10,792 nucleotides of DNA from Candidatus Aenigmatarchaeota archaeon (GTDB lineage Archaea > Aenigmatarchaeota > Aenigmatarchaeia > Aenigmatarchaeales > JACQIB01): assembly GCA_043799675.1 (NCBI GenBank), contig JAZDNN010000021.1, positions 1 through 10,792 on the forward strand. Direction: 5' to 3'. A program made the position numbers and the translations under genes. The notes under the pieces were generated by a model. It was given only the letters and a program-made list of their open reading frames with translations. It searched no databases and had not been told where the DNA came from. Below are positions 2,677-10,041 of this stretch, in pieces (position 1 is the first letter of the stretch; every line of letters begins with the position of its first letter).

Positions 2677-2781
2677 GGGCCCGTAGTCTATCGGCAGGAC
2701 GCGACCCTCACAATGCCTTCCGCACGGCGGAAGCAAACGAGAGCGGTTGAGAGCCAGGTTCAATTCCTGGCGGGCCCACCA
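2677..2781 (+). tRNA. tRNA-Val(CAC) with canonical 37/38 intron (2713-2743), CCA encoded
   Basis: Acceptor GGGCCCG/CGGGCCC, A73, CCA. Anticodon arm CGACC-CT-CAC-A|C-GGTTG and T arm CCAGG-TTCAATT-CCTGG. Intron hairpin CTTCCGC-ACG-GCGGAAG. TATA-like TATTAAAG at 2649-2656. Confidence 0.92.
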
Positions 2782-2948
2782 GAAAGTTCTTTCGCCTTTT
2801 TGATTCCTACAATTTTGATGGTCACCATGTCCCCGCGTTTGATATCAAGCGCATAGGCAACATCCCTATCCAAAGTAATCTGACGTTTGTCCTTTACTTT
2901 TGGACAAAAATTTAGCTGCTGTCCCTCAGGCAATACCTCATAATCCAT
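2760..2948 (-). CDS. AbrB/MazE/SpoVT-like small DNA-binding protein (62 aa)
   Basis: From ATG 2948: MDYEVLPEGQQLNFCPKVKDKRQITLDRDVAYALDIKRGDMVTIKI... matches the AbrB swapped-hairpin pattern. The longer 3104 start in the ORF track overlaps tRNA-Glu and was rejected. Confidence 0.7.
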   Translation of the reverse strand: MDYEVLPEGQQLNFCPKVKDKRQITLDRDVAYALDIKRGDMVTIKIVGIKKAKELSGGPARN

Positions 2949-2964
2949 AATCGTATGCAAGCAT

Positions 2965-2978
2965 GAAAGGTTAAATAA
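2965..2978 (+). promoter_or_regulatory. BRE/TATA candidate for tRNA-Glu, in a short spacer shared with the divergent AbrB-like gene
   Basis: GAAAGG-TTAAATAA ends 24 nt upstream of 3002. Confidence 0.55.
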
Positions 2979-3001
2979 GCTCCGAAGGACAACAGAAGAT
3001 T

Positions 3002-3173
3002 GCTCCCGTCGTCTAGTCCGGTCAAGGATCGAGGCCCTTCGAGCGCGCTCGAAGGATGCGAGCGAAAGCTGTGAGCGCAAGGCAAGCCTCTGACCAGGGT
3101 CCAAAACGGGCTTTCTTAAAAAGAAAGCAGGTTTGCAAAGAAACGCCCGACGGAGATCCCTGCGGGAGCACCA
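3002..3173 (+). tRNA. tRNA-Glu(TTC) with two introns (37/38: 3042-3084; 59/60: 3106-3156), atypical C33 and C55, CCA encoded
   Basis: Acceptor GCTCCCG/CGGGAGC, A73, CCA. Anticodon arm GAGGC-CC-TTC-G|A-GCCTC, 4-nt variable loop TGAC and T arm CAGGG-TCCAAA|T-CCCTG. Perfect BHB CCTT-CGA-GCGC / GCGC-AAGG-CAA. Relaxed BHB TCCA-AAA-CGGGC / GCCCG-A-CGGA-GAT. Confidence 0.85.
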
Positions 3174-3772: not shown

Positions 3773-6700
3773 ATGCAGCCTGTGAATTATGTCACCTTGA
3801 CGATTATCGCTGTTGTCCTGTCCAGTTCTGCGGTCGCATACGTCGTGCTGGCCGCACCCACCGTTTTCACACTGAGCATCATTCATCCGACTTCAGCGGA
3901 CAAAGCACTGGTCACGGACGGGCAGGACATAACCGTCAAGTTCATCTTCACAATGGACGGTGCCAACGTCACGAGCGGCGTCAGCGTCGCGAACATCACG
4001 GTGGGCGGGCAGACCTGTCAGCTGCAGGATCGCAGTGAAGGCAAGTACCTGCAAAGAACGATCATTACAAACAGCCTGGACTTCGCGTTGACCGATTACC
4101 AGGTCAACCTGACCGTTGATACCTCGTCATTAATTGCGGCCGGAAAGATGCGCTCGGACTGCGGCGATATAAGATTTTTCAACTCGTCAAACGCAGAGAT
4201 TGATCATTGGATAGAAAACGGCTGCAATACGCCCGCCACCAGGATATGGGTCGAGGTGCCGAACATCCCCGCGGCAGGGACCGAAAACATAACGATGCAT
4301 TACGGAAACCCGGACAATGCATACGAAAGCAGCGGCGACGACACTTTCATACTGTTCGATGATTTTTATTCTGATAACCCCGTTTACAGCGAAAACCAGA
4401 CCATTTACAACAACGTAAGGGCGGCTGCGGACAACGTAATTTCACTGGACCACTTCGCCTTTCCCGACGGGACGGATTATTGGGTAGCCGCACCGCGGTA
4501 TGAGATTCCATATGCGGTAGATACCGCCCTGACCATGCTAGGTTACCCCGAACATTTCACGGCAGCCCAGTTGAACAACACGATATACAAGTTTGCGAAT
4601 GCCACCAATGCCAAAGGGGAAATGCCCATATCCTTGACCGTAGGCGGTACCGCCTACAGTTTCTATTCGGGGCACGATCACTGGCATCTCCATGCGGGGG
4701 GCGATGCCCAGTTCATGATGCCGCAACTGGCGAGATTGTACTATGACAAGACCGGGGACATAAACGCTTTCAATACCGGCTACAGGGTCAAGCTGATAAA
4801 TGCCCTAAAGACCATCCAGATGAATTCGGCGACCGGCCTGGTGTATGTGGATCCAAGCAGCCCCTGGATACCGTTCGGTTTCAGGGACGGTGTACTGAAC
4901 ACCGGAAACAACCTGCTGGGGTCCCTGATGTATTACAGGGCATCAACGGACATGGCCTATCTGCTGAACATAAGCGGGGACAGTCAAAACTATACCTACT
5001 TCACGAACGCGGCAAACAACGTAAAAGGCAACATATCCAGACTGTGGAACGACACGGACAACATGTTCCATGCGGCGGACGGCGCGAACAACCTGACGGA
5101 CATCGTGGGAAGCGCCCTTGCGGTCCATCTCGGCGTCGCGAACGCAACGCAGGCATCATTAATCGAGGATTATCTTGTGAACAACTTCGATTCCATAACC
5201 TACAGGGGGTTCGTATTGCAGACCCCGAACAACTGGTCCACGCCCCTCATGTCAACCTACGATGACGGTTACTGGAGCTTCGGCAACGACTGGATACTTA
5301 CCACCCTGGCCGTCAAGAACGCGAGCCTTGCATACGACCTGACGCTCCAGCTCTCAAACAGTCCGAACCCGGACATTGAACACTGGGCGAAAGCGAGAAA
5401 CGGCAACGGGGGTTATGATACCAACCTGGAATCGCCTGTCGGGACCTTAAGGTATATCATGGACAATCCCCAGATTTATGACGGCAGCTCTTACTCTTAC
5501 AGGACCATTGACCATGATAAATGGGCGGTCACTTCGAAAGGCGCCTGCGCCGCAACGATATCAGACAGCCTGCTTAACCAGTACTCCGCAAGCGGGGCAT
5601 TTCATCAGATTAGAAGCACAAAAACGTTCACACCGAACGTAAGCATAGAACGGAGGGTGATGTTTACCGGTAACACCTCGAATACGAGGAACAGGGCCAA
5701 GGTGTTTGGCGCGGATGCACCGACCGACTACGGCGTGTTTGATAATCTGCAGATATATGTCGGCATGGAAACCGGCTATTATGCGCCTTCGGGGTCATGG
5801 ATGCGCGAAGTACAGAAAATCAACGCAACCGACATTGCATGGTATTTCTATAACGAAACCAACAGCATCTTTTCAACCGCATTCGCTGAAGATGTGAGTG
5901 CTTCCGGGCTCCGGTATTATCAGTCGGTAGGCAATCAAGGTTTTTTGGGCAACGGTAATGTCACAACCGACTGGGTTTTTGTGCGTAAATGGTACGGGGT
6001 AGAGCCCATCAGTACGACGGGCGCGGAGGAATATGTGAATGCCGTGTATGATTCTGCGACCGGAATATGGGGCGTGAACTGCAGTGTGCCAGCCGGATTT
6101 AATGATGCCCAGAACCTGTTCGTTTCCGCCAACGCAACAGCCTATTCCGCCAGCATGGCAGACGACACGGAGACCGGGGCCGTATTTTACATAGGACCGC
6201 CAACGGCCTATTCTGTCGGTCTTGACCTGCCTGCCGGGAACTTGGAAACGAACCCTTACGTCACGTTCCAGATGGCATGCACCCCGATAACGAACGGAGC
6301 AGCGACCGGGGTCGATATATTGTACGAATACAACTCGTCGGCGTTCGACTGGACCGCGATTCCGACCTCGGGGACCGCAAATCTTACCGTTGCGACGAAC
6401 CCCGAAACGGATGTCCTGAACAACAGTCAGGTGAGTGAGATCATAACCGCGCACGATAAAGGCGTCTATAACGTCAGGTGCAGAGCCTATAATTCAACGG
6501 ATTCTGTTTACTCGGCGGAAAAGCAGGTCACCGTGACGTCCTGGTGGAACAGCGATTATGCTTACCAAAAGAACCTAATCATCACGAACACCCTTCCGGT
6601 GAACCTCACGGACTATCAGGTCAATGTGAACATTGATACGGCAGCGCTGATAGCCGCAGGGAAGATGAATACGAGCTGCCTTGACGCAAGGTTCGTGAGC

Positions 6701-8713
6701 AGCACCTACGGCTTGATGTCCCACTGGCTGTGGAGCGGCACGTGCAACTCAAAATCAACAACGTTCGTCGTGAAGATCCCGCTCATTTGGGCGAATGCGA
6801 CTACGAACATAACCATGTATTACGGCAATCCGGCCGCTACAAACGCGAGCAGCGGGAACGCAACCTTCATCTTCTTTGATGACTTCAACAGCGTTCCGGA
6901 TACCATCCTGGATATCACGCATTTCAACAAGTTTGCGGGCAACCCCGTGATGAACATCACTTACCCGGGTGCCCCATATGACAACCGCGGCATACGGGAA
7001 ACCGGCATAATGCAGGTGATAGACAACGTGACCTACGAGAAGACGTTCCAGGAAAACGGCACCTATACCATGTTCTACACTTCGGAGGGAAACACGAACG
7101 GCGACGACTGGTACGAATCGATGGCAACTTCCACGGACCTGTACAACTGGACGAGACTGGGGCTCGTTACGAAGAATTTCTCGAGCGCCCCGTGGAACAG
7201 CAGGACCAGGAGTTCGGCGTATGTGTTCAAGTACAACGGCACTTATTACATGTATTACATGGGCTCAAACATAACAGAAGGCCCATCGACCTGCAATGCG
7301 CCACGGATGCCGTATTGGGTCGAAATGGCAACTACGACCGATATTTCCAACATATCCTCGTGGGTCCTGTATGCAGGGAACCCTGTCATAAAGCCCACTG
7401 ATGGAACCACGTATGCATCCGATTTCATAGCTTCCGAACTGCTGCGCGACCCGTCCAACTCGTCCCAGTGGCTGCTGTTCGGAGGCGCAGGCGACGGGAC
7501 CATAGAAAGAATCGCATACTTCAAATCCACCGATCTTTTCCATTGGACGTACGTCGGCCTGGCATCCGGGACCCTGACATGGGAGGAGAATCCGAAGATA
7601 ATCAAGGCGAACGACGGGAATTATTACATGGTAACGAACCACATAGCTTACACATATACGGACTCGGATATATTTTATAGAAATGCAAGCGCGGATCTGA
7701 GCTCATGGACGTATCTGGGCAGCATAACGAACAAGTCAGCCTCCGGCTGGGATTCCGGTGCAATCGGGGTTGCCGGACTGGTGTATGAAAACGGCATCCT
7801 GACGCTGCTCTATGACGGCGGCCCGACAACCAACCACTGCGGCAGGCAGATAGGGATAAACAGGAACGGCGCCACCACGCTCGATTTTGGCAAATGGACC
7901 GTCGGACAGGGCTCATGGGAAATGGAACTGAAAGACGGCTCGAGCAGGGGCAAGCTTACTGCCGCCGGCGTTAACAACACGCTATACACGGACATAGGAA
8001 TCTCGGATAATTACATGATTGAAGGCACCGTCGGGCGGGCTTCAGACAGCGGCCAGGCCGGATTCGTCTTCAGGTACGACAACCAGAGCAACTTCTTCGC
8101 AGCATATTTGAATTATTCCGGTAACAAAATCAGCATCGCGGGTACCCTGGGTGCCGTTCAGCAGGCATACAAGGTGTCGACATCAAAGATAGTGGGCGCG
8201 AACGTCCATTATTATGAGGGACTTTCCGTGTCCGGGGGCAACTTTACGTTCAATGTCCAAGGCACCGTCCTGAGAGGGTATAATTCGAACCTTTCGACAA
8301 GCACGAAGGTGGGACTGTGGGGCAGCAACGCCGGCCAGACGTGGTGGGACGATTTCCGCGTCCGCAAGTACATCTATCCGGAGCCGACGGTGGCCGTGTC
8401 GGAAGAGGACATACCGGCGACCTACGACCCCGCAATAACCGGTCCGACGACGGCAAGCTCGATAAGTACGAGCGGCGGTGCCACCAAGAACGCGACAAAT
8501 ACGACCTCCCCAGAATCACCGATAAAAATGCCGACGCAGACACCGGGCGCCGATGATACCAACGGAACGGCGGCATCATCCCCGATTACCGGCGCGATTG
8601 TCATGACAACCGAATCATGGATAGTAGCCATGTTGACAGCAGTTGTTGCAATATTCATGGGGGGAGCGTACTTCTATGAACATAGGAAGAAAACGGTAAC
8701 GGTTGCGTCGTAG
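3773..8713 (+). CDS. Large membrane-anchored surface protein: two DUF2341-type modules, one with an inserted (alpha/alpha)6 glycosidase-like domain and one with a five-bladed beta-propeller glycosidase-like domain
   Basis: N-terminal hydrophobic signal. Two copies of LTDYQVN...DT..LIAAGKM...C.D.RF...HW...ITM.YGNP...FI.FDDF and closing D..[FR]VRK[WY] motifs. Many N-x-S/T sequons, a Thr/Ser/Pro linker, ITGAIV, a TM helix and a basic tail HRKK. Confidence 0.8.
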   Translation: MQPVNYVTLTIIAVVLSSSAVAYVVLAAPTVFTLSIIHPTSADKALVTDGQDITVKFIFTMDGANVTSGVSVANITVGGQTCQLQDRSEGKYLQRTIITNSLDFALTDYQVNLTVDTSSLIAAGKMRSDCGDIRFFNSSNAEIDHWIENGCNTPATRIWVEVPNIPAAGTENITMHYGNPDNAYESSGDDTFILFDDFYSDNPVYSENQTIYNNVRAAADNVISLDHFAFPDGTDYWVAAPRYEIPYAVDTALTMLGYPEHFTAAQLNNTIYKFANATNAKGEMPISLTVGGTAYSFYSGHDHWHLHAGGDAQFMMPQLARLYYDKTGDINAFNTGYRVKLINALKTIQMNSATGLVYVDPSSPWIPFGFRDGVLNTGNNLLGSLMYYRASTDMAYLLNISGDSQNYTYFTNAANNVKGNISRLWNDTDNMFHAADGANNLTDIVGSALAVHLGVANATQASLIEDYLVNNFDSITYRGFVLQTPNNWSTPLMSTYDDGYWSFGNDWILTTLAVKNASLAYDLTLQLSNSPNPDIEHWAKARNGNGGYDTNLESPVGTLRYIMDNPQIYDGSSYSYRTIDHDKWAVTSKGACAATISDSLLNQYSASGAFHQIRSTKTFTPNVSIERRVMFTGNTSNTRNRAKVFGADAPTDYGVFDNLQIYVGMETGYYAPSGSWMREVQKINATDIAWYFYNETNSIFSTAFAEDVSASGLRYYQSVGNQGFLGNGNVTTDWVFVRKWYGVEPISTTGAEEYVNAVYDSATGIWGVNCSVPAGFNDAQNLFVSANATAYSASMADDTETGAVFYIGPPTAYSVGLDLPAGNLETNPYVTFQMACTPITNGAATGVDILYEYNSSAFDWTAIPTSGTANLTVATNPETDVLNNSQVSEIITAHDKGVYNVRCRAYNSTDSVYSAEKQVTVTSWWNSDYAYQKNLIITNTLPVNLTDYQVNVNIDTAALIAAGKMNTSCLDARFVSSTYGLMSHWLWSGTCNSKSTTFVVKIPLIWANATTNITMYYGNPAATNASSGNATFIFFDDFNSVPDTILDITHFNKFAGNPVMNITYPGAPYDNRGIRETGIMQVIDNVTYEKTFQENGTYTMFYTSEGNTNGDDWYESMATSTDLYNWTRLGLVTKNFSSAPWNSRTRSSAYVFKYNGTYYMYYMGSNITEGPSTCNAPRMPYWVEMATTTDISNISSWVLYAGNPVIKPTDGTTYASDFIASELLRDPSNSSQWLLFGGAGDGTIERIAYFKSTDLFHWTYVGLASGTLTWEENPKIIKANDGNYYMVTNHIAYTYTDSDIFYRNASADLSSWTYLGSITNKSASGWDSGAIGVAGLVYENGILTLLYDGGPTTNHCGRQIGINRNGATTLDFGKWTVGQGSWEMELKDGSSRGKLTAAGVNNTLYTDIGISDNYMIEGTVGRASDSGQAGFVFRYDNQSNFFAAYLNYSGNKISIAGTLGAVQQAYKVSTSKIVGANVHYYEGLSVSGGNFTFNVQGTVLRGYNSNLSTSTKVGLWGSNAGQTWWDDFRVRKYIYPEPTVAVSEEDIPATYDPAITGPTTASSISTSGGATKNATNTTSPESPIKMPTQTPGADDTNGTAASSPITGAIVMTTESWIVAMLTAVVAIFMGGAYFYEHRKKTVTVAS

Positions 8714-9840: not shown

Positions 9841-10041
9841 GCGGGGGTAGCCAAGCCTGGTCTAAGGCGCAGGTATTCCTTGAGTGCTGACCGCAGCATA
9901 CGATGAGCTGAATCGGGATGATTGCGAAACTCAAGATCCTGTCTCGTAGAGGGTTCGCAGGTTCAAATGAGCGCGAAGCGCCAAGAGGCGTTTTGGCAAC
10001 CTTCGGGTTGCAGTGCTATGAGAATCCTGTCCCCCGCACCA
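9841..10041 (+). tRNA. tRNA-Leu(CAA) with two non-canonical introns (30/31: 9874-9928; 59/60: 9968-10024), CCA encoded
   Basis: Acceptor GCGGGGG/CCCCCGC, A73, CCA. Anticodon arm CAGG|A-CT-CAA-GA-TCCTG, variable arm CTC-GTA-GAG and T arm GCAGG-TTCAAA|T-CCTGT. BHB helices and bulges CGCA-GGT/TGCG-AAA and TTCA-AAT/TGAG-AAT. TTTAAG at 9814-9819. Confidence 0.92.

Follow-up and report, generated by a model that had tools for sequence, protein, structure and literature searches.

The tRNA-Glu(UUC) gene of a Candidatus Aenigmatarchaeota (DPANN) archaeon encodes C at both position 33 and position 55, where U is nearly universal among tRNAs. Gene anatomy, recurrence among relatives, covariation, and gene content are the observations on which we base our reading that C33 and C55 are probably encoded variants, tolerated or possibly useful, in a lineage where the constraints on these two positions have loosened. 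A preliminary description of the gene had put forward conversion of the two nucleotides to U, by editing linked to splicing, as a candidate explanation. This proposal fares poorly against the evidence presented below. The gene lies at positions 3002 to 3173 of the window, by which we mean the whole stretch of 10,792 nucleotides that was analysed. The window is the entire contig C23 of a genome (G000; relatives are numbered from G001) assembled as 748,753 bp in 45 contigs, with 83% completeness and 0.08% contamination.

Direct reading of the sequence reveals a complete gene with two introns (Table 1). When these introns are removed at their bulge-helix-bulge sites, the exons form a canonical cloverleaf with four fully paired stems, loops of standard length, and an encoded CCA end. 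The spliced anticodon loop is CCUUCGA (C32 C33 U34 U35 C36 G37 A38), and the spliced T loop is UCCAAAU (T54 C55 C56 A A A, joined by splicing to T60). Thus, the earlier placement of C33 at 3037 and C55 at 3101, and the claim that stems and CCA are intact, withstand rereading. No other choice of splice points yields U33 or U55; every 7-nucleotide loop that we built carries C (or A) at position 33 and C at position 55. Based on general knowledge of archaeal promoters, the sequence TTAAATAA is a candidate promoter, and similar A/T boxes lie approximately 24 nucleotides upstream of the tRNA-Ser and tRNA-Val genes. As previously stated, the other three tRNAs in the window, tRNA-Ser(GCU) (2352-2501), tRNA-Val(CAC) (2677-2781), and tRNA-Leu (9841-10041), all carry T33 and T55.

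Table 1. Features of the tRNA-Glu(UUC) gene and its introns, in window coordinates.
Feature	Position	Strand	Remarks
TATA-like box TTAAATAA	2971..2978	+	24 nt ahead of tRNA position 1, following a purine-rich stretch
5' exon	3002..3041	+	tRNA positions 1-37: acceptor, D arm, 5' anticodon stem, C32 C33 U34 U35 C36 G37; C33 = 3037
Acceptor stem GCTCCCG/CGGGAGC	3002-3008 / 3163-3169	+	read from sequence
D stem GTCT/GGAT		+	loop with G18G19; read from sequence
Anticodon stem GAGGC/GCCTC	3031-3035 / 3086-3090	+	read from sequence
Intron 1	3042..3084	+	43 nt, canonical 37/38 site; boundary ambiguous by 1 nt, with A at both ends
CTCGAAGG within intron 1	3048..3055	+	complementary to positions 32-37 plus 2 nt (CCTTCGAG); forms the minimum-free-energy hairpin
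K-turn-like hairpin GCGA-GC-GAAA-GC-TGT-GA-GC	3058..3076	+	resembles box D'/C'; read by eye
AAGG, 3' strand of intron 1 central helix	3079..3082	+	G3081 opposite C33 in CCTT(3036-3039)/AAGG
Middle exon	3085..3105	+	positions 38-59: 3' anticodon stem, 4-nt variable loop TGAC, 5' T stem, T54 C55 C56 A57 A58 A59; C55 = 3101
T stem CAGGG/CCCTG	3095-3099 / 3158-3162	+	read from sequence
Intron 2	3106..3156	+	51-nt T-loop intron (59/60) with a relaxed bulge-helix-bulge
3' exon	3157..3173	+	T60, 3' T stem CCCTG, 3' acceptor CGGGAGC, A73, CCA; followed by a T-rich tract
A73 and encoded CCA	3170-3173	+	read from sequence

Two open frames were noted near the tRNA genes. The gap between tRNA-Ser and tRNA-Val is filled by a frame of 49 codons (2505-2654, + strand) rich in Lys and Glu, and a metatranscriptome contig from a relative spans 2529-2736. 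Just downstream of the tRNA cluster (3773-8713, + strand) is a 1646-amino-acid protein with DUF2341 repeats, which is probably a large surface protein.

Standard tools do not detect the tRNA-Glu(UUC) gene. ARAGORN with default settings reports no genes in the window and, when introns are allowed, calls only tRNA-Val on this contig. Rfam searches at gathering and E-value thresholds likewise return nothing at 3002-3173. A custom scan for acceptor pairing, CCA, and a T arm produced 49 candidates in G000, 8 of which were rejected by eye as non-tRNAs to leave 41. Two further tRNA-Thr genes bring the count to approximately 43, among which 23 have T-loop introns; ARAGORN finds only 17 genome-wide. 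Nearly all tRNA genes of this genome bear introns, and we attribute the failure of standard finders to call the Glu(UUC) gene to its two introns.

This gene is the sole Glu(UUC) gene found in the 83%-complete assembly. A second, canonical copy, whose existence would have weakened the case for editing, was looked for in the same assembly and none was found; the only other match within the genome is a Glu(CUC) gene on contig C20. The codon GAA is used 31.1 times per 1000 codons (284 long open frames), and the five C55-bearing tRNAs of G000 described below together read GAA, GAG, AGA, AGG, and ATA, or approximately 116 per 1000 codons. Ile is encoded most often by ATA (26 per 1000), which is served by a tRNA-Ile(UAU) (C6:2210-2381) that itself carries C55, rather than by a modified CAU tRNA. 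Judged from its sequence, the tRNA-Glu(UUC) gene appears to be intact and needed, and not a decaying pseudogene. This agrees with the earlier argument against random pseudogenisation, to which can be added that the same C nucleotides recur in relatives.

Seventeen public read runs were considered, with the best sharing 0.18 of the sampled words, and four of them were compared. One of the four gave nothing, and the contigs of two others derive from relatives. A single RNA run covers only positions 2456-2782, outside the Glu gene. A contig from an unrelated sediment metagenome, approximately 88% identical, covers 2719-3173. Among the 40 of its 72 differences that are listed, none falls at 3037 or 3101, which gives weak support for C33 and C55 being real.

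Within G000, C33 is unique to tRNA-Glu(UUC), as approximately 31 of the 32 or so readable anticodon loops carry T33. C55 is found in 5 of approximately 43 tRNAs (Ile-UAU, Arg-UCU, Arg-CCU, Glu-CUC, and Glu-UUC), all with TCC T loops. The suggested check for other tRNAs of this genome with C33 or C55 thus turns up no further C33 and four further C55 tRNAs, one of which, Arg-UCU (C10:42136-42257), has no intron in its T loop.

When the DNA of 41 related genomes was searched with the Glu gene, 38 of them gave matches, from which we extracted another 15 Glu(UUC) genes along with 3 Glu(CUC) genes. Together with our own, the resulting 16 Glu(UUC) genes were gathered by similarity and therefore constitute a sample that is unbiased as to position 55. 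This comparison of orthologs, which the preliminary description had recommended, reveals C33 in 6 of the 16 genes (G000, G003, G004, G010, G017, and G021) and C55 in 3 (G000, G001, and G010), with all four combinations of C and T at the two positions represented. Even genomes of the same genus differ at position 55 (C55 in G010, T55 in G017). C33 recurs in Glu(UUC) orthologs of four families, always covarying with the intron. U33 is replaced by C only, and C and T interchange freely among relatives.

The distribution of C55 is broader. A T-arm pattern for C55 anchored on the encoded CCA matches 13 times in 8 of 42 genomes of the order, whereas the reversed control gives no matches. Eleven of these are recognisable tRNAs, specifically Glu(UUC) (five), Arg(UCU) (three), and one each of Phe, His, and an Ile-like tRNA, while the remaining two have no recognisable 5' half. 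Among 19 sampled genomes of the order, CCA-anchored T arms carry C55 in 10 instances and T55 in 166. Most other families do not encode CCA, as indicated by the T55 control, and so the search was repeated with a CCA-free 13-mer. It yielded 24 matches in 15 of 121 genomes (control, 1), and the 16 loci newly examined in this manner comprise 12 tRNAs and 4 non-tRNAs. C55 tRNAs outside the order occur in G141 (Cys, Glu, Leu, and Asp), G066 and G123 (Thr-CGU in both), G051 (Phe), and G079. In all, 13 related genomes together hold at least 21 tRNA genes with C55. Recurrence of the pattern with a zero control places C55 beyond chance or error.

Within the order, C55 is found mainly in Glu, Arg(UCU/CCU), and Ile(UAU) tRNAs, and position 55 is U in most tRNAs. 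Glu and Arg(UCU) genes with C55 recur in families f1, f3, f5, and f6. The preliminary description had tied C55 to the intron and its splicing, a link that the wider sample does not sustain: most of the C55 genes of the relatives, like Arg-UCU of G000, lack a T-loop intron, and in the 16 similarity-gathered Glu(UUC) genes C55 is present in 1 of 6 with a T-loop intron versus 2 of 10 without one.

Position 55 is also replaced by a purine. U33 and U55 form the two U-turns of tRNA, U55 contacts G18, and C lacks the N3-H and O4 groups that are used there. Two tRNA-Thr genes of G000 for the anticodons UGU and CGU (C16:13548-13635, - strand; C6:15771-15858, + strand) have the T loop TGCAATT, and thus carry G55. 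Across the 42 genomes of the order, a T-arm pattern for G55 or A55 matches 8 times, in 6 genomes, and its control never does. Seven of the eight are G55 tRNAs (Thr, five; Trp, one; His, one) in five genomes, and the single A55 match is a non-tRNA. The G55 tRNAs in relatives (L072, L073, L074, L075, and L077) have T loops of the form TGCRAWT. All seven G55 tRNAs carry AG in place of G18G19, while every C55 tRNA retains GG, and U55 accompanies G18. The joint occurrence of A18 and G55 is covariation at the 18:55 elbow contact, which would represent an alternative A18:G55 pair in archaea. G55 in the company of A18 is beyond the reach of deamination and shows that position 55 truly varies in this lineage.

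The relationship between the unusual nucleotides and the introns was examined by drawing the precursor helices. The bulge-helix-bulge of intron 1 comprises, in order, GAGGC/GCCTC, a 3' bulge CAA, the central helix CCTT/AAGG, a 5' bulge CGA, and GCGC/GCGC. The minimum-free-energy fold of intron 2 contains the T stem, a helix TCC/GGA (3100-3102 / 3152-3154), a 4-nucleotide 5' bulge, CGGGC/GCCCG, and a 3' bulge GAT, such that the 59/60 site has a bulge-helix-bulge of relaxed form with a 3-bp UCC/GGA helix. Both intron pairings described previously, C33 with G3081 and C55 with G3153, can therefore be drawn. The helix in intron 1 stands as CCTT/AAGG, but the helix around C55, given earlier as TCCA/CGGA, consists of three pairs only, as its fourth position is an A57-C3151 mismatch. 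According to RNAfold, a CCUUCGAG/CUCGAAGG hairpin is favoured over the competing bulge-helix-bulge at 37/38, although the central helix of the latter covaries in 21 orthologs.

The intron tracks the nucleotide at position 33. The base opposite this position in the central helix is G in all nine C33 Glu(UUC) genes, and in 12 T33 genes it is A in nine and G in three; helix registers were read by eye in five genes (L007, L010, L027, L055, and L060). Intron 1 has a second segment, complementary to the whole anticodon loop, that is GAAGG in every one of the 9 C33 genes and GAAAG in every one of the 12 T33 genes. Because the intron base follows position 33 as C:G or U:A, these changes point to selection on the precursor helices and not to a need for C. 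Hence the pairing of C33 with an intron G appears to be real but a consequence, wherein the intron adapts to the base at position 33 and thereby would preserve the helices of the pre-tRNA.

Intron 1 has another feature of interest. At 3048-3076, an 8-nucleotide complement of the anticodon loop is separated by 2 nucleotides from an NNGA box, after which come a short GNRA hairpin, a 3-nucleotide bulge, and GA. Equivalent NNGA ... GATGA motifs with the same spacing can be read by eye in approximately 17 Glu(UUC) orthologs (L002-L056). By the fifth-nucleotide rule, this candidate intron guide would direct 2'-O-methylation of U34. The pre-tRNA-Trp of Haloferax volcanii carries an intron-encoded box C/D guide. 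Like that RNA, intron 1 contains a stretch complementary to the anticodon loop, positioned such that position 34 would pair with the fifth nucleotide before a D'-like box, and a K-turn-like hairpin follows. Unlike that RNA, it has only one K-turn and one guide within approximately 43 nucleotides and lacks complete C and D boxes. Intron 1 contains no second box pair, and there is no Rfam C/D match at this location.

Genes for tRNAs with multiple introns, including T-loop introns at 59/60, are known in Thermoproteales and in ARMAN/DPANN archaea. The arrangement described here, with bulge-helix-bulge introns at 37/38 and 59/60 and the second relaxed on U54-R57, does not differ from them in kind. 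Most of the 59/60 introns of G000 belong to one sequence family (GAGCGCGAAGCGCCAAAAGCGC...GTGCTATGAGAAT), with examples at 9841-10041 of the window, C16:536-698, and C13:24579-24744, and their ends also look K-turn-like. Their similarity suggests that one intron has spread among the tRNA genes of this genome.

A search for an enzyme capable of editing was made in G000 and its relatives. CDAT8, the C-to-U editing enzyme of Methanopyrus kandleri, consists of a cytidine deaminase (CDA) domain fused to a THUMP domain. No CDA-THUMP fusion was found in G000, where the sole THUMP protein combines a ThiI-ferredoxin domain with THUMP and lacks any deaminase domain. A single PF00383 match is present in this 83%-complete genome, a 155-amino-acid homolog of dCMP deaminase without THUMP, and a scan of 4020 open frames for the zinc motif identified no other credible CDA. 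The protein matches ComEB with an E value of 9e-34, below the curated cut-off, and PDB entry 2HVV with an E value of 3e-29 over nearly its full length. Thus, the search for a cytidine deaminase or a THUMP-fused deaminase suggested in the preliminary description identifies only this dCMP-deaminase homolog.

The deaminase gene (C16:3106-3570) resides in a cluster (C16:2128-6309, L024) that includes ffh, trmY, pus10, the dCMP-deaminase-like gene, a convergent P-loop kinase gene, and then rpl21e. In 14 genomes of the order the deaminase gene is directly downstream of pus10 on the same strand, with a gap of 43-147 nucleotides, as a separate, unfused gene, and in three more it lies within 1 kb. The order of trmY, pus10, and deaminase is not kept in the 12 best-matching genomes compared outside the order. 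G000 encodes ThyX, and ThyA was not found there; the convergent arrangement with a P-loop nucleotide kinase and the presence of ThyX mean that a role in dTMP synthesis suffices to account for the deaminase. Taken together, the deaminase and the kinase are reminiscent of NF041025, a two-domain model for an anti-phage dCTP deaminase. In two genomes (G006 C1:6919-9678 and G008 C14:6785-9559), pus10 matches fall in two pieces within one open frame of approximately 925 amino acids, which suggests a large in-frame insertion, possibly an intein.

The deaminase does not accompany encoded C everywhere. The deaminase-kinase cassette beside pus10 is cleanly absent in G011 (94% complete) and G025 (90% complete), where pus10 is followed directly by rpl21e and no PF00383 match exists. 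Yet G011 and G025 both carry C55 tRNAs, and G025 also has C33. The genome G001, which has C55, likewise gives no PF00383 match, but its contig ends 41 nucleotides after pus10, which makes the absence there uninformative. Overall, 6 of the 9 C55-positive genomes of the order have the deaminase, as do 19 of its remaining 32 genomes. At first sight the juxtaposition of pus10 and the deaminase gene favoured editing strongly, but we do not treat it as decisive, given the missing cassette in C55 genomes and the close homology to dCMP deaminases.

How might a tRNA with this sequence be made and used? The tRNA-Glu(UUC) precursor would be transcribed from its own A/T box and would lose its two bulge-helix-bulge introns, at 37/38 and 59/60, to the archaeal splicing endonuclease and ligase; its CCA end is already encoded in the gene. 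C33 and C55 would most likely stay C in the mature tRNA, which would function with them. Neither U33 of tRNA-Glu nor the 18:55 elbow contact is fixed in the order. Several considerations count against tolerated variants of this kind. A C55 elbow or a C33 turn would have to work without the U contacts, frequent C/T flips between close relatives are also what editing would allow, and a deaminase-fold gene sits beside pus10 and trmY in 14 genomes of the order. Moreover, at 83% completeness the contigs could lack a further Glu(UUC) gene or a further deaminase.

Editing would involve conversion of C33, C55, or both to U, followed by isomerisation of U55 by Pus10, and could be catalysed by the ComEB-like protein or an unrecognised enzyme, with or without coupling to splicing. 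The near-universality of U33 and U55 favours this possibility, as do the exclusive replacement of U33 by C, the free interchange of C and T among relatives, the order-specific linkage of trmY, pus10, and the deaminase gene at gaps of 43-147 nucleotides in 14 genomes but in none of the 12 compared outside, and the precedents of C8-to-U8 editing in Methanopyrus kandleri (PMC3695527) and TrcP in Vibrio cholerae (10.1101/2022.02.17.480965), so far as excerpts of these reports describe them. Nevertheless, we consider editing quite improbable. The only credible CDA in 4020 open frames is a close dCMP-deaminase homolog for which dTMP synthesis is a sufficient role, no CDA-THUMP fusion accompanies it, and it occurs in 6 of 9 C55-positive genomes versus 19 of 32 others. 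The slot between pus10 and rpl21e is empty in G011 and G025, C55 is common without any T-loop intron, and G55 with A18 cannot be produced by deamination. The splicing-linked editing suggested originally has no fitting enzyme candidate, the one CDA-fold gene being missing from some relatives with C55 or C33, and its link to introns fails for C55. It is a long shot that these genomes hold a second archaeal C-to-U system, a split-gene analogue of TrcP in which C55 and the C33 of tRNA-Glu would be deaminated by the trmY-pus10-linked dCMP-deaminase-like protein or by an unrecognised deaminase before Pus10 acts.

The variants might instead have a selected function, in which C55, through loss of pseudouridine 55 and an altered elbow, together with C33, changes the handling of tRNAs for Glu, Arg-AGR, and Ile-AUA. 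Such tRNAs might, for example, evade a host or viral toxin that cuts tRNA, or bind modification or elongation factors differently. C55 is indeed concentrated in a few isoacceptors that read abundant codons, with Glu and Arg-UCU recurring in families f1, f3, f5, and f6, and an excerpt of PMC1616971 indicates that the archaeal (Pyrococcus) enzyme Cbf5 does not form pseudouridine at position 55 of a U55C transcript, and that Pus10 does so only poorly. We view such a function as unlikely, since the state flips within genera and families in a manner that suggests near-neutrality, other isoacceptors carry C55 outside the order, and our analysis turned up no nuclease or partner. Almost no credence is due to the idea that the C nucleotides are assembly errors or that the gene is decaying. 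Its one attraction is that standard tRNA finders do not call the gene, but this failure arises from two introns and extends to most G000 tRNAs (17 versus approximately 43). Stems, CCA, and A/T box are intact in the sole Glu(UUC) gene found for a codon used at 31 per 1000, and the same C nucleotides appear in independently assembled relatives with compensating intron changes. Encoded variants in a lineage with relaxed positions 33 and 55 therefore remain our preferred reading.

Comparable cases exist, and the comparisons that follow draw on excerpts of the cited papers. Natural C55 is found in tRNA-Gly isoacceptors of Lactiplantibacillus plantarum (PMC10464925). As in that bacterium, an encoded C replaces U55 in otherwise normal elongator tRNAs, which work in L. 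plantarum, and does so in some isoacceptors only. Unlike the bacterial example, which is restricted to one amino acid, the archaeal tRNAs described here represent several isoacceptors, share genomes with an A18:G55 class, and frequently have T-loop introns. Our search of the literature on position 55 of archaeal tRNA found no description of a natural archaeal C55.

C33 is a feature of eukaryotic initiator tRNAs. It also occurs naturally in tRNA-Cys(GCA) of Sulfolobales (PMC7668247), so that there, as here, an archaeon has an elongator tRNA gene with C at the U-turn position. Our example differs in that it concerns Glu-UUC in another phylum, where close relatives vary between C33 and T33 and two intron segments covary with this position.

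The C8-to-U8 case of M. kandleri resembles ours in that archaeal tRNA genes encode C at a position where U is structurally essential. It differs in that the lineage examined here has no CDA-THUMP enzyme that we could find and only a minority of its tRNAs are affected. TrcP is a fused deaminase and pseudouridine synthase that converts C to pseudouridine in tRNA-Tyr. The deaminase gene directly after pus10 recalls this coupling of activities, but the two are separate genes here, the deaminase is a dCMP-deaminase homolog, and the pair is absent in some C55 relatives.

Few nucleotides in biology are as conserved as U33 and U55, and the G18-U55 elbow contact is commonly regarded as universal. Within a single order of ultra-small archaea, approximately one in six tRNAs departs from U55, either as C55 or as A18:G55. 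Standard tRNA finders miss such genes, and counts of isoacceptors in DPANN genomes will come out too low. If the editing explanation were true, it would constitute a new RNA-editing system. The genes with C33, C55, or G55 also provide a natural test set for the need for pseudouridine 55 and U-turns. That the only tRNA gene found for an abundant codon encodes neither U-turn uridine suggests that these rules can relax in working translation systems.
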